From a virus: a DNA stretch of 42,177 bases. The stretch lies in the UHGV virus genome UHGV-0135963; one strand, given 5' to 3'. This document shows positions 1 through 42,177 of the stretch, piece by piece. Under the pieces are notes generated by a model. It saw nothing but the letters and a program-made list of their open reading frames with translations, did no database searches and was not told where the DNA came from. How positions within the stretch are numbered: the first letter of the stretch is position 1; every line of letters starts with the position of its first letter. A program made the translations under genes and the position numbers.

Positions 1-49
1 GCCACTATTCTAGTTGTTCTTAACTGGCTGATATTGATTCAAATCGTGT

Positions 50-2782
50 TCAGGTCTTTCTTATTAACCATGCTTCCAGAGCGGCAACACTGCGTGTAAT
101 TTCTTCGTGTGGAAGGGGGGCAGATAATGGCTGCTGCTCCAGTTGTGCGCATAGCTGGCTGGCGCTACGCATTCCCAGACTCGAGCAACTGCTTTTTAGC
201 TGATGCGCGGCACGCTTTATTTTCTCGCTATCCTCACTGGCGCGGGCAATGTCGATGTCATCGAGAAGCGGCAGGGCATGTTGTGTAAATAATACCAGCC
301 ATTCGTGGATCTTCTCCGTCCCCATTAACTGAGCATCTTCATTGAGTTGCGATACATCCAGCGGTTGTTCGTTATTAGCTGGCAGTTGGAGATAGTGCGC
401 CAGTAACTGACCGAGCACTTCACGCGGCACCGGTTTAGGGATAATCCCGCGAAATAGCGAACTGGTACGCTGGCGCAACGTTTCGTCGATGACATGGGCG
501 CTAAAGCCAATCAAAACCAGCGACGGATATTGCTGTGCCAGTTGTCGGGCAAGCGTAATGCCGTCGATATCCGGTAGATCAAAATCCACCAGTGCGGCAG
601 CAAACGGTTCGCTATTTTGCAGTGCCTCTAAAGCCTGCGCGGCATTGCCAACAGCAACGACCTGCGCACCACTGTTGTTCAGCATCTCAACGGTAATTCG
701 CTGGGTTAGCGGGTTATCTTCAATTAACAGCAAACGTAAACCGTGCAGACACACCGCCTGATTGACTGTTTTTGGCACGGGGGCAGTGGCAACACGTAAC
801 GGCAAGCGTAAACAAAAACAGCTTCCAACCTCCGGTGTGCTGGTGGCGCTCAGTTCGCCGCCCATCGCCTGGGCCAGACGGCTACTGATAGTCAGCCCCA
901 GCCCGGTGCCGCCGCGTTTGCCGCTAACCTGAACAAATGGCTGGAAGATTTCAGCCAGTTTCGTGGGATCAATACCGCAGCCGCTGTCTTCCACTTCGAC
1001 CAGCCATTGTTCGCCATCAGTGCGACTACGCAGGATAATGTGCCCTTCGTCGGTGAAACGCAGAGCGTTGCTCAACAGGTTGGTAATGACCTGACGAATA
1101 CGCCGCGGATCGCCCATTAACGCAGTCGGTACATCGTCGGCAATTTCTGTTGCCAGGTGAATCGGGCGACCTTTCACCCGTCCGCTCATTAATTGCAGGG
1201 TACTTTCCAGCAGCGGGCGCGGTTCAAAGGGTTCATCGCTGACCGAAACATTCTTGCCGCCTGCTTCGATAGCCGAATAATCGAGAATATCGTTGAGGAT
1301 GGTCAGCAACGATTCACCAGAGTCAGTAATTGCGCGCAAATCATCGCGCTGGGCGTTAAGTGCGGGGTTATCTGCCAGCAGCTGTGCGGTGCCGAGAATA
1401 CCGTACAGCGGTGTGCGGATCTCATGGCTCATCGCCGCCAGAAACGCCGATTTTGCCTGGCTGGCTTTTTCTGCTTCCGCCCGTGCCTGTCGGTGTTCTA
1501 TCACCAGTTCCTGCAATTCAGCTGTACGCGCTTTGACCTGTGCCGCCAGCTGTTCGCGGTGGCGATTCAGTGCATGAACACTGCTGCGAAACGCATCCAT
1601 CAGCCGCCCGATGGTGTCCAGCTCCCGCACGCCAGCGGTTTCCGGAAAAGGGGAGTCGATATCACCGTCCAGTAAGCGTTGCAGCGCCTGCGTTTGTTCG
1701 GCAAGTGGACGCGTGACTGAGCGATAAACCACGCGCCAGAGGATCAGAATCAGTGCGCAAAGTGAAACCATCCCCAGCAATAACAGGCTGTACTGCCCGC
1801 GTGCACTGGCTTTTTCCAGATGCGCCAGACCGTGCTGATTACGCAGCTCAATGGTGTCGACCAGTTGACTGACTTCGCTACTAAACTGCGCGAACTGGGC
1901 GATGTTATTTTGCGTGAGAGTTTGCAGGCGATGACTGATTTCACTGTCCTGCTGATACAGCGCCAGCAAATCGCTATATTGGCTAACGGAAGTTAACGTT
2001 GTTGCAACCTGAGCACGAACTCCCGGATCTTCAATGCGTATTTGCCGACGTTGCAGAATTTTCACCGCATTATTGAGCTGCTTTTCCAGCGTTGGCGCAT
2101 TTTTCTGGATCTGTTCCAGCCCCAGATTCATCACCATTTGCTGCACCCGCAGGGCGCTAAGGCGCAGTTCATTCATCTGGTTAACATACTCAAGATCGAT
2201 ATCAATCAGCCGATCGAGTGCACTTTCTGCGGCCTGACGCTGATGTTGTTCGATCAAATCGTAAATCCCGGCCTGGGTCGCTCCGGCGGAGGTTGCCGCA
2301 TTATTCGCCTGACCTTGCGCCAGGCGTGCGATCTCATCGGCGGCGGCGACTATCTGCTGACTGAGTCGCTGTTGTTGCTGGCGCAGTTGCAAACGCTGCC
2401 CCACCAGTTCCCCTTGCTGACGTAACGAACGGGAGATCTCCTGCTCCTGTTGTTCAATAGCGGTGGTATCAAAACCTTGTTCCCGTAACGCTTGCAGCAA
2501 CGCATTAATCTTCAGGCTTTGTGCGGTGAGCATTCGCCCCTGCGCCTGCCACATCTTTTCGTTATCGGCACTGGTCAGGTTCTGCGCGGCGAAAAGTTCC
2601 CAGGCGCTGGCTTCGCTCAACTGGCGCGCCATATTCATGGTAGGAATCAATGCCTGAGTGTTGTCTTTTTCCACCTGGCTGATAAAGCGCAGGTTGTACC
2701 ATCCCACCAGGGTACTGGTCAGGGTTAACAGCGCCATCAGGGCAAAGCCCATCCAGAGTCTTCGGGTCAGGGTTAAATTCAC
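50..2782 (-). CDS. torS: TMAO-responsive hybrid sensor histidine kinase TorS (host gene)
   Basis: 910-aa ORF. N-terminal TM/periplasmic region, H-box (SHEIRTPL), HATPase G-boxes, receiver domain (LLLIEDNPL...DFDLPDIDG) and C-terminal HPt domain. N-terminus [19 protein letters not shown] matches my memory of E. coli TorS. Confidence 0.93.
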
Positions 2783-2789
2783 GGTCGGT

Positions 2790-2880
2790 GCACTTAAGGT
2801 GAATAAGTTGTATATTTAAAATATCTTTTGTTATCAATGAATTAATGTAAGCAGGTCATTATTAGTCAAAATAAAATCAT
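2790..2880. other. attL (B-O-P') attachment junction with Int arm-type sites
   Basis: Sequence upstream of the int stop (caggtcattattagtcaaaataaaatcatttgtcgatttcaattttgtccca) closely parallels the lambda attP P' arm with three arm-type repeats (AGGTCATTAT, TAGTCAAAAT, AAATCATTTG). The core is probably near ggtgaataagttgta (about 2800..2815). Exact core boundary not determined. Confidence 0.6.
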
Positions 2881-3950
2881 TTGTCGATTTCAATTTTGTC
2901 CCATTCCCGTCCACGGCTGTCCCTATACCGCGCCGCCATTGAATCTGATTTATGCCCGAGAAGACGTTGAGCAAACTTATCGCCAATCTGGTTCCGGTAT
3001 AGCCTCGCTGACAGGCTACGCAGTTCATGGAATGTTGGCGGGTTTCCATCAAATGAGAGTCCAGATGCATTTCTCGCCTTTGTAAAATACTTTGATACTG
3101 TTTTCGGGGAAAGCGGATCGTGATGCTTTGATGCGATTATAGTTTCACTGCTGCTGGCCTCCCTGCATTTCTGTAGTGTATCAGCCAATGAGATATTGAG
3201 CGCGTCAATCGTTAGCGTTAGCGGAATGGCGAGTTTAGCCCCTGTTTTACTCTGTTCAATGTGAAGATGGTTGTCGTTTATGTCTGACCATTTCATTCTG
3301 CACAAATCGCCGACTCTCTGCCCTGTAACGACGGCCAAATCCATCGCCAGCCTTAGCCAGATAGGGAGAGGTTCGGCTGCATGGTAAATCTCGACATACT
3401 CATTAGCTGTCAGCCTTGAGCGCCTTACTTCTGACTTTGCTGTACGGGTTGCTGTTACCGGATTCGTTGCCACATGCCCCTCGGCTATTGCTTCACGAAA
3501 AACGTCAACAAGGGTTGACCTGATTAATTTTGCGGAAGCTGCTTTACCTTCCGCTACGTAGGTGTTTAGCATTGCTGCCACATCTTTCGTTGATATGTCA
3601 GTGAGCGGTTTGTCCGGCAATTTTCTTCGGATTGCCCTGATTTTGCTGGCGTAGTCGAGTAGAGTTTTCGGCCTGATCCCCCTTTCGGTGAGGATTCTTT
3701 CATATCGGTCAAGCCACACATGAAGAGTGATTGCGTCACCGCCTTTAATTCTGTCTATCAGTGATTTGCGTCCGCTGTCTGAGAGTAACTCAATATTGGC
3801 CTGTATTGCTTCAGTGATTGCTATCCTCCTGTCTCGGCCTAATCCAAACTCTTTACCCGTCCTTGGGTCCCTGTAGCAGTAATATCCATTGTTTCTTATA
3901 TAAAGGTTAGGGGGTAAATCCCGGCGCTCATGACTTCGCCTTCTTCCCAT
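2877..3950 (-). CDS. int: Tyrosine integrase, lambda Int family
   Basis: 357 aa; N-terminus MGRRRSHERRDLPPNLYIRNNGYYCYRDPRTGKEFGLGRDRRIA is near-identical to lambda Int as I recall it. C-terminal catalytic region (HELRSLSARLY) conserved. Stop overlaps the P' arm. Confidence 0.93.
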   Translation of the reverse strand: MGRRRSHERRDLPPNLYIRNNGYYCYRDPRTGKEFGLGRDRRIAITEAIQANIELLSDSGRKSLIDRIKGGDAITLHVWLDRYERILTERGIRPKTLLDYASKIRAIRRKLPDKPLTDISTKDVAAMLNTYVAEGKAASAKLIRSTLVDVFREAIAEGHVATNPVTATRTAKSEVRRSRLTANEYVEIYHAAEPLPIWLRLAMDLAVVTGQRVGDLCRMKWSDINDNHLHIEQSKTGAKLAIPLTLTIDALNISLADTLQKCREASSSETIIASKHHDPLSPKTVSKYFTKARNASGLSFDGNPPTFHELRSLSARLYRNQIGDKFAQRLLGHKSDSMAARYRDSRGREWDKIEIDK

Positions 3951-4146
3951 TTCTGATCCTCTTCAAAAGGCTACCTGTTACTGGTCGATTTAAGTCAACC
4001 TTTACCGCTGATTCGTGGAACAAATACTCTCTTCCATCCTTAACCGGAGGAGGGAATATCCTGCACTCGCGTACCCATCGACGAACTGTTTCAAGGCTTC
4101 TTGGACGTCGCTGGCGTGCGTTCCACTCCTGAAGTGTCAAGTACAT
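3928..4146 (-). CDS. xis: Excisionase Xis
   Basis: 72 aa MYLTLQEWNARQRRPRSLETVRRWVRECRIFPPPVKDGREYLFHESAVKVDLNRP... matches lambda Xis as recalled. Overlaps the int start as in lambda. Confidence 0.9.
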   Translation of the reverse strand: MYLTLQEWNARQRRPRSLETVRRWVRECRIFPPPVKDGREYLFHESAVKVDLNRPVTGSLLKRIRNGKKAKS

Positions 4147-4172
4147 CGCAAAGTCTCCGCAATTACACGCAA

Positions 4173-4195
4173 GAAAAAACCGCCATCAGGCGGCT
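4173..4195 (-). terminator. Candidate intrinsic terminator (stem CCGCC/GGCGG followed by U-run on minus strand) between orf55 and xis
   Basis: Plus strand aaaaaaccgccatcaggcggctt. On the minus strand this is a GC hairpin followed by TTTTTT. Hairpin overlaps the stop of the upstream small ORF. Confidence 0.4.
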
Positions 4196-4353
4196 TGGTG
4201 TTCTTTCAGTTCTTCAATTCGAATATTGGTTACGTCTGCATGTGCTATCTGCGCCCACAGCATCCAGTGGTCATAGCAGTCATTGATGTTCTCTGCTTCG
4301 ATAACTCTGTTGAATGGTTCTCCATTCCATTCACCTGTGACTCGGAAGTGCAT
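4186..4353 (-). CDS. Small conserved phage protein (55 aa, lambda b-region orf55-like)
   Basis: Hand-translated ORF MHFRVTGEWNGEPFNRVIEAENINDCYDHWMLWAQIAHADVTNIRIEELKEHQAA. Below the 60-aa cutoff of the ORF track. Position corresponds to the small ORF next to xis in lambda. Confidence 0.45.
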   Translation of the reverse strand: MHFRVTGEWNGEPFNRVIEAENINDCYDHWMLWAQIAHADVTNIRIEELKEHQAA

Positions 4354-4441
4354 TTATCATCTCCATAAAACAAAACTCGCCGTAGCGAGTTCAGATAAAA
4401 GAAATCCCCGCGAGTGCGAGGATTGTTATGTAATATTGGGT

Positions 4442-40026: not shown

Positions 40027-42177
40027 ATGACAGACATTACAGCCAATGTGATCGTATCGATGCCTTCGCAACTCTTCACTATGGCGCGTTCTTTTAAAGC
40101 CGTAGCCAATGGCAAAATTTATATCGGTAAAATTGACACTGATCCTGTAAATACAGAAAACCAGATTCAGGTCTATGTGGAGAATGAAGACGGTTCTCAC
40201 GTTCCTGTTTCGCAACCAATAATCATTAACGCTGCTGGATATCCGGTATATAACGGACAGATTGCCAAATTCGTTACCGTGCAAGGCCATTCTATGGCTG
40301 TTTATGATGCGTATGGTGCGCAGCAGTTCTATTTTCCTAATGTGCTGAAGTATGACCCTGATCAACTACGGCAGCAATTAGAAGACCCGGATGGAGCTAA
40401 AAAATATCCTGAATTGCAGATATCTCGGTGGAGGGACGATTGTGATGTAAGAGGGTGGGGGGCAAAAGGCGATGGTATAACAGATGATACATCTGCATTG
40501 ATCTTGGCTGCAGAATATGCACGAGAATCATCCAAAACATTACGAGCGGAAGGTAATTTTATTATTACGGAGACATTAAATCTTCGTAATGTCAGCCTCG
40601 AAATGACCAATGCTGTTTTTACCATATCCCACTCAGGAATAGGGGTATTGCTTGGCGGGGATGCATCAAACCCTAACAACCCAAGACAAAACTTCGGAAC
40701 GATTATCAGAAATTCTGGTATTTCATCTGAAACGACACCGGATATTCGTATTATTGGGGCAAAAGGGCAGCATATAAACATTGAGCGTTGCGACTACTTA
40801 CAGTTATATGCAAATTATAATGCTTCGGTGGCATCGACGGATTATTCAATAGCATACTCAACCTTTAACCTGAAAAAGGTCGATACAATTCATTTTCTTG
40901 GAGTTGAGAACGGATGGATAAATGAAAACTATTTTTATCTGAATCGTACGAATAATATCATTTTCGCTGATAATCCATATCATCATAACCACAATAAGTT
41001 TTATGGTGGAACTATGGAGGGGGCAGGTAAAATTGATATTCAAAGAGGTGATAACAATTACTTCTACGGGTTTCGTTTTGAACGATATCCATCATCCCCA
41101 ACTAACCAACAGTTGATAATTAACTTTGGTGAATATACGTGGAATAACTCAATTGAGGCTTCATGGTTAAGTTCTCCTTACTATACAAATGAACCATACA
41201 ATCCATCACCTTACACTTATGTAGAGGTAACTGATAATGGCAAGGGGAATGCAGTATTTCATGTTCAGGAAAATATATCCGATGAAGTAACATTGTTTTC
41301 TTTAAATGCTAACACCCCATTTATATCCAGTGCCAACAATGGAGAAGTTGGTGCATTAGCATATCAAACAGATGTAGATGGTTTATATAATATCCGTCAC
41401 CTAGTTTCTTCTAAGTTTGCTTTTATGCGGAATTTTGGGTTGTTATGGGAATCTGGAGATGTACCAGTAAGAAATGGTGATATGTTTACATTCTCAGCAG
41501 ATACGGCATCGTTTCGCATTTACCTGTATGCATTAGATGGAGATGGGAATGTCATAACTTCACAAACAGAAGCAATAACTTCTTCTATGCAATGGGATTC
41601 ATCTAACCATAGATATGCTACTGTTGCTAACATTTCTTCCATTAAGATCAGGATTAATAATGAAGGGGTTCCAGTTAGTGCAATTCGTTTAGCTGTGTAT
41701 TCTGGTGGTAATGTAGCGAATACTGCATTTTCATGGCTATGCTTAACTGGTAGATATTACAAAAATAGCACATCCTTGCCAAGGAAAAGCAAAGATAACT
41801 TCACCTTAAAACAAGGAAAAGCAATTACTTATTATAGTGATACTGATATTAGTATGGCTAACATTGGTTCAGGAATTACCTGTTATAAAACCGATTTATC
41901 TGAAATCAAAATTAATCTTGTAAGGGGCAGGTATGTAGTGAAATCAATTTCAGGCAGTGAAATATATGTATACCAAGGAACAGTCACTTATTACCCTCCA
42001 TTCAGTGATGTCAAATTGGTATATACGGATGGGGTTGAAAATAAATTATTAGATGTGCAAAACATCTCTTCAGGAAAGATTACTCTTGCAGATACAGTAC
42101 CATCAGCTATATCTGCAGGTGATTTTGTAGATGTTATTGTTACGAAGACGAAGTCTATTTTATCCAGTGCGCCGTAA
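40027..42177 (+). CDS. Tailspike protein (P22-type N-terminal head-binding domain plus divergent receptor-binding domain)
   Basis: 716 aa. N-terminus [58 protein letters not shown] matches the P22 gp9 head-binding domain. Remainder is an AT-rich, Asn/Ser/Tyr-rich beta-rich domain. Stop codon is the last 3 nt of the window. Confidence 0.9.

Follow-up and report, generated by a model that had tools for sequence, protein, structure and literature searches.

The attL of phage HK022 in Escherichia coli K-12 was reportedly described by Yagil et al. in 1989. The HK022 site separates torS from an IscR-regulated promoter, and in HK022 lysogens the expression of a torS-lacZ fusion is raised and torT is unchanged, the driver being an outward-facing phage promoter (Carey et al. 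2019, eLife 8:e49081, PMC6814406). These lysogens lose aerobic torCAD expression, and with it the bet-hedging that it supports; extra TorT restores the expression, and torS is no longer transcribed once an omega terminator has been inserted at attL (PMC6814406). The sequence upstream of the phage start is highly conserved and contains no clear -10 or -35 element (PMC6814406). A natural lysogen, NRG 857C, shows a torCAD pattern like that of the HK022 lysogen, with the caution that prophages at torS-torT need not all behave alike (PMC6814406). Among complete E. coli genomes, about 5% have a prophage at torS-torT, VR50 and NRG 857C being examples, and Sf101-, Sf6- and HK620-like prophages are already listed there, the one in VR50 as Sf101-like in Supplementary file 1 (PMC6814406).

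The promoters that are lost on integration have also been described. P1torS is the stronger of the two native torS promoters; its start precedes that of P2torS by 42 bp, it has its -10 element in common with PtorT, and it is repressed by IscR (Mettert et al. 2026, PMC13644379). The elements of P2torS are embedded in attB, its -10 element matches the consensus at four of six positions, and an A-11T substitution abolishes either native promoter, P1torS or P2torS (PMC13644379). The P2torS start lies at most 3 bp from the GTG codon of torS, at a G or an A (PMC6814406), of which the A is taken as +1 (PMC13644379).

Here we analysed the window, which is the whole stretch of 42,177 nucleotides of UHGV virus genome UHGV-0135963, at the point where torS meets the integrase gene of a prophage. 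Our reading, to which we assign a probability of about 0.8, is that a prophage carrying the HK022 integration module forms attL at this point, that the native torS promoters have been displaced, and that torS is transcribed from within the prophage.

Structure of the attL core and the phage arm

The initial annotation had placed a prophage junction immediately upstream of torS, with torS starting at 2782 and int ending at 2877; both of these ends are right according to the ORF list. It had also stated that HK022 attaches in the torS-torT intergenic region, which is what the K-12 sequence and the published account show (PMC6814406), and had proposed an alignment with an unoccupied torS-torT site. 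When the window was aligned with K-12 attB and HK022 attP, the exact core was located as a hybrid HK022-type attachment core at window 2790–2810 (Table 1). The unoccupied K-12 core, between torS and torT, reads GCACTTT-AGGTGAA-AAAGGTT, HK022 attP reads ATCCTTT-AGGTGAA-TAAGTTG, and the window reads GCACTTA-AGGTGAA-TAAGTTG, so that it follows K-12 attB in its left half and HK022 attP in its right half. K-12 attB diverges from the window at the C' site (2804–2810). The junction is upstream of the torS start, as had been claimed, but the distance of 20–90 bp did not hold, as the exchange region is 15–21 bp from the annotated GTG and 45–51 bp upstream of ATG 2752, the experiment-supported start. 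Phage-only DNA begins 22 bp upstream of the GTG. The torT-torS spacing in K-12 is 82 bp.

Of the 5,426 complete E. coli genomes that were searched by BLAST with window 2400–3100, 5,415 matched the torS side. In most genomes, whose site is unoccupied, the match covers query positions 1–411, that is, it ends at window 2810, whereas in 193 genomes it runs through the whole query into int. The RefSeq names under these matches are TorS and tyrosine recombinase. The match to HK022, mEp235 and their relatives starts at window 2793 with approximately 95.5% identity, and window 2783–4200 is 95–99% identical by BLAST to HK022, mEp235, H19J, Gally and several Stx1a phages, the HK022 match spanning its annotated attP, integrase and excisionase. 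No 100% match to the junction region was found by BLAST among complete RefSeq E. coli genomes. A pattern search found no second att core within the window, and native torT-side (B') DNA is absent from the 39.4 kb of the window past the junction.

With a single junction in the window, and the attR of its own genome beyond it, one could read the junction as an assembly chimera or a chance resemblance and not as a true integration. We regard this as next to impossible, for the same junction, joined at the same base, is present in 181–193 independent genomes of the 5,426 complete ones and in 46 published lysogens, the window has one copy of the core pattern CTTWAGGTGAAWAAG where chance would give 0.02, and related lysogens carry the reciprocal attR. 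Judged from its sequence, window 2790–2883 is attL (B-O-P'), formed by site-specific integration at the HK022 attB between torS and torT.

The reciprocal site also brackets the exchange. The window itself ends at the tailspike stop codon, short of attR, and attR is missing from it for that reason. In VR50, attL has a T directly left of the overlap, and attR, which adjoins torT, reads ATCCTTA-AGGTGAA-AAAGGTT. In strain 100248, attL has an A left of the overlap and attR, again adjoining torT, has a T there; in this strain about 0.5 kb separates the tailspike stop from the attR overlap beyond it, and the tailspike region is 95.8% identical to that of the window. Both strains likewise show a switch at the base immediately right of the overlap, between T of the phage and A of the host. 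Because the flanking bases on both sides thus differ between attL and attR, the exchange is confined to AGGTGAA (2797–2803). The attR of the prophage described here would be expected beyond 42177 as GTCATCCTT[A/T]AGGTGAAAAAGGTTGAGTCGC, at roughly 0.5 kb from the end of the tailspike gene and with torT after it. The phage C arm is itself polymorphic, ATCCTTA in the VR50 prophage and ATCCTTT in HK022 and the 100248 prophage (seen at L003 6270–6300 for the VR50 attR and at L006 6855–6885 and L007 210–235 for 100248), and, judging by partial 30-base matches, A would be present in about 15 attR sites and T in about 167. The sequence GGAATCAATGCCTGAGTG of HK022-P1, a published PCR primer for attHK022 integration, is unchanged in torS at window 2642–2659, so this strain should be amenable to the standard junction PCR.

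The P' arm measures 73 bp between the overlap and the stop codon of int, and in HK022 the int stop is likewise 73 bases from the junction (Carey et al. 2019, PMC6814406). The arm carries six substitutions relative to HK022 (at 2823, 2829, 2830, 2837, 2839 and 2852) and is base for base that of the VR50 prophage. Positions 2853–2900 are identical between the window and HK022, and this block is nearly invariant across 46 aligned lysogens (PMC6814406). Alignment with the P' arm of lambda is possible column for column, including a probable IHF site and three putative arm-type Int sites that stand in tandem at 2853–2882 and run into the end of int. We take the names and the consensus of the H' and P'1–P'3 sites to be those of lambda attP. 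The integrase encoded next to the arm is identical to HK022 Int at 344 of 357 residues (96%) over its full length and without gaps. Upstream of xis, two strong terminator-like hairpins were observed on the int/xis strand, at 4177–4196 (-) and 4373–4392 (-), with the sequences AAGCCGCCTGATGGCGGTTT and GAACTCGCTACGGCGAGTTT, each followed by a T-run; as long as the prophage is uninduced, they could restrict the leftward transcription that enters xis-int-torS.

Table 1. Features of the torS–attL–int–xis region of the window.
Feature	Position	Strand	Basis
torS as annotated, GTG start at 2782, 910 aa	50–2782	-	ORF list, RefSeq annotation
torS in-frame ATG, experiment-supported start in K-12, ten codons downstream of the GTG	2752–2750	-	String search
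Equivalent of the native P2torS start, A 2785 / G 2786	2785–2786	-	Inferred from the texts of PMC6814406 and PMC13644379
P2torS -10 remnant, TTAAGT (TAAAGT in K-12)	2792–2797	-	Sequence
attL B arm, host core-type Int site GCACTTA	2790–2796	+	Alignment with K-12 attB and HK022 attP
7-bp overlap (strand-exchange region) AGGTGAA, common to attB and attP	2797–2803	+	Alignments
C' core-type Int site TAAGTTG, earliest phage-only bases	2804–2810	+	Same in HK022 attP and lambda attP
P' arm, 73 bp, overlap to int stop	2804–2876	+	Alignment and string search
Probable IHF H' site TATCAATGAATTA, pattern WATCAANNNNTTR	2832–2844	+	Aligns with lambda P' TATCAATTTGTTG
Putative arm-type Int site P'1 AGGTCATTAT	2853–2862	+	Aligns with lambda AGGTCACTAT
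Putative arm-type Int site P'2 TAGTCAAAAT	2863–2872	+	Aligns with lambda CAGTCAAAAT
Putative arm-type Int site P'3 AAAATCATTT	2873–2882	+	Aligns with lambda AAAATCATTA
Best consensus phage promoter candidate, TCGACA (2887–2882)-18 bp-AATAAT (2863–2858), start ~2851	2858–2887	-	Scan
int stop codon	2877–2879	-	String search
int, HK022-type tyrosine integrase, 357 aa, transcribed toward torS	2877–3950	-	ORF, BLAST annotation
xis, excisionase, 72 aa, overlaps the int start	3928–4146	-	ORF; HK022, mEp235 and H19J matches annotated as excisionase

The torS start, the native promoters and base 2796

RefSeq still annotates the GTG start of torS. Fusions to the two candidate starts in K-12 gave 10.5 Miller units for the ATG and 0.35 for the GTG (PMC6814406), and GTG 2782 was rejected as the true start because a GTG fusion is without activity. 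The functional start is probably ATG 2752, and the annotated GTG is probably wrong. A published torS primer, GGGTCAGGGTTAAATTCACGG, corresponds to window 2765–2785. At the other end of the gene (window 50–80), TorS terminates in ...EAWLIRKT* (910 aa), compared with ...EAWLHKKDLNAI* (914 aa) in K-12 and VR50.

The native promoter DNA is divided by the integration. In K-12 the P1torS start and the IscR site lie on the torT side of attB (position according to PMC13644379), and neither of them, nor torT, was found within the 39.4 kb of the window beyond the junction. The start position of P2torS is retained on the torS side. Counting from the A start, TAAAGT is the only hexamer at -12 to -7 with a 4/6 match, which we used to place the -10 element, and the -35 element inferred for K-12 is TTGCGA (4/6, 16-bp spacer), situated in the B' flank. 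At the corresponding position the window has phage TTAAAT. With the -35 element lost and a T in place of A at -11, P2torS should be inactive in this lysogen, only its -10 element and start remaining. The claim of the initial annotation that native torS promoter DNA has been replaced is borne out, as P1torS and the IscR DNA are absent and the putative -35 position of P2torS is now P' DNA. The native promoter is not wholly contained between the core and torS, which supports the interpretation of a displaced promoter.

The T at -11 derives from base 2796, which is A on the + strand of the window (GCACTTA) and T in K-12 (GCACTTT; L001 1897). By the mapping of the -10 element, 2796 A would be the natural equivalent of the engineered A-11T substitution in P2torS. 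An exact-allele search of complete E. coli genomes found A in 1,943 unoccupied attB sites (~39%) and T in 3,049, and among lysogens A in 98 attL sites and T in 83; clonal STEC lineages enter these numbers uncorrected, and little should be read into the more frequent occupancy of sites with A. Both alleles serve for integration, which fits the C' half-site, where the equivalent position is an A (CAACTTA). That 2796 A came with the phage, or is a sequencing error, was considered and rejected on the basis of the attL and attR sites of VR50 and 100248 and of the 1,943 unoccupied A genomes. The base is host-derived, because it lies outside the exchanged segment in VR50 and 100248 and is present in unoccupied genomes. 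If 2796 A does act as A-11T, many natural E. coli would be without a working P2torS and would depend on the IscR-repressed P1torS alone, torS in a lysogen would be entirely dependent on the phage, and the polymorphism might have been shaped by phage and host. We put this forward tentatively, at somewhat less than even odds; the polymorphism may reflect a phage–host interaction because it is located in a core-type Int site.

Transcription of torS from the prophage

The published experiments on HK022 delimit where the phage promoter can be. From the published recombineering primers, the omega insertion point is exactly AGGTGAA/TAAGTTG, at window 2803|2804, and the published in vitro template reached the equivalent of window 2983, at -231 from the torS ATG (PMC6814406). 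Given the omega insertion and the limit of the template, the phage promoter would lie within 2804–2983. Within 2804–2900 this interval differs from HK022 by six substitutions, and the best promoter candidate is kept. This candidate, TCGACA-18-AATAAT, is the only promoter-like site in 2600–4400, and the same site is present in HK022. The scan was not enriched over shuffled sequence, with one site found and 2.6 expected, and the published region has no clear -10 or -35 element; for these two reasons we do not take the candidate as established. A second HK022 candidate, ATGACC-18-GATAAT (equivalent to 2859–2830), is weakened here to GATAAC by a P' substitution.

That last change bears on the idea that torS has been silenced, with the native promoters lost or dead, the HK022 outward promoter destroyed by the six P' substitutions and torCAD uninducible as a result. 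The displacement of P1torS, and a P2torS that has no -35 element and carries the natural A-11T, would agree with such silencing, as would the step from GATAAT to GATAAC. We consider it improbable, as the conserved block upstream of the phage start (PMC6814406) is identical here to that of HK022, and the arm of NRG 857C also differs in the variable block, yet this strain has an HK022-like phenotype (PMC6814406). The torS ORF is, moreover, intact, and such lysogens are frequent (181–193 genomes).

A transcript could also reach torS from int. The two genes are on one strand, 94 bp separate the int stop from the GTG, and a hairpin scan found no intrinsic terminator between them. Because this gap is free of terminators, read-through from int could add to torS transcription. 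A stronger version would have torS transcribed mainly by read-through of the int transcript, from the int promoter or, after induction, from pL, like the gal escape synthesis of lambda. The shared strand, the short distance and the hairpin-free gap speak for it, and if lambda is a guide, the terminator that follows int in the free phage would presumably span the att site and end up at attR in the prophage, which again favours read-through. The omega insertion blocks both sources alike. As the main source of torS transcription we nevertheless find int read-through unlikely, and prefer an outward promoter within the prophage.

The exchange in AGGTGAA makes all DNA upstream of torS beyond 2803 phage DNA, and on this preferred reading it would have carried P1torS, the IscR operator and torT to the opposite prophage end, at a distance of more than 39 kb. 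As in the HK022 lysogen, torS would then be transcribed from the prophage. The source would be an outward sigma-70 promoter situated either in the P' arm or at the 3' end of int, to which read-through from int might contribute, especially after induction. The outcome would be an IscR-independent, raised level of TorS relative to TorT. An excess of TorS would favour the dephosphorylation of TorR, leaving aerobic torCAD expression off and anaerobic induction intact. The initial annotation had suggested a change in torS regulation, and such a change has been shown for HK022 lysogens and one natural lysogen (PMC6814406); we infer by analogy that the same phage promoter would operate, and the same phenotype would appear, in the present strain.

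The rewiring of torS by a prophage is already known, in mechanistic detail since 2019, and a prophage with the identical attachment arm, that of VR50, is already catalogued (PMC6814406). What the window adds is another natural instance, in which a P22-like mosaic uses the HK022 integration module, and, as a small addition, 2796 A, an allele common among hosts and, by our mapping, equivalent to the laboratory A-11T. It illustrates that a prophage can rewire host signalling by its insertion point and an arm promoter, without a cargo gene, the pathway affected being TMAO respiration under TorS, TorT and TorR. For annotation, the DNA upstream of torS in such strains is phage DNA and the torS start is probably ATG 2752. 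The K-12 pattern of TMAO-reductase regulation should not be assumed for this strain.

Comparison with known prophages

Outside the integration module, the late genes of the prophage are nearest to those of the P22-like phage CUS-3 (89% of 22 kb at 96.6% identity), and the early genes are nearest to Sf101 and mEp043. By these matches the HK022 int-xis-attP module belongs here to a mosaic podovirus prophage of the P22-like kind. Window 38000–40000 matches a P22-like immI-type region, which in relatives contains two Arc-family repressor genes and an antirepressor gene (Ant) upstream of the tailspike. The tailspike (716 aa, window 40027–42177) matches P22-like phages in its head-binding N-terminus and differs from VR50 and CUS-3 in its receptor-binding part; among E. 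coli genomes, only a few from human stool contain close copies of the tailspike region (95.8–97.8% identity).

The VR50 prophage (NZ_CP011134) shares the P22-like architecture and is collinear with the window through torS, attL, int and xis over window 1–4173 at 97.5% identity. It differs in a T at the equivalent of 2796, a tailspike of 981 aa instead of 716 aa, a largely different early region and an IS3 insertion. That the window is the VR50 prophage itself was rejected, as the match is limited to the torS-att-int-xis module and scattered blocks and the tailspikes differ. The Stx1a-converting and other lambdoid prophages at torS-torT in STEC (for example LC744179–LC744184, and phage H19J) have the same insertion point and a 95–99% identical int-xis-att module, and many of their hosts have the GCACTTA B arm found here, whereas their stx1 cargo, morphogenesis genes and P' variable block differ from the window.

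Lambda attL on the gal side has the same layout, with C', H' and a tandem of three arm-type sites that extends into the end of int, and int is likewise transcribed outward across attL into host DNA. The overlap sequence and the location of attB differ from those of the HK022-type site. We know of no removal of a host promoter at the lambda site, whereas the HK022 site sits inside P2torS. The HK022 attL differs from the one described here in its B arm (GCACTTT compared with GCACTTA) and at the six P' positions, and HK022 is a siphovirus whereas the present phage is a P22-like podovirus mosaic. The two share attB, the overlap AGGTGAA, the C' site, the 73-bp length of P' and the orientation of int, and the consequence is alike in both, with the native torS promoters removed and phage DNA in their place.
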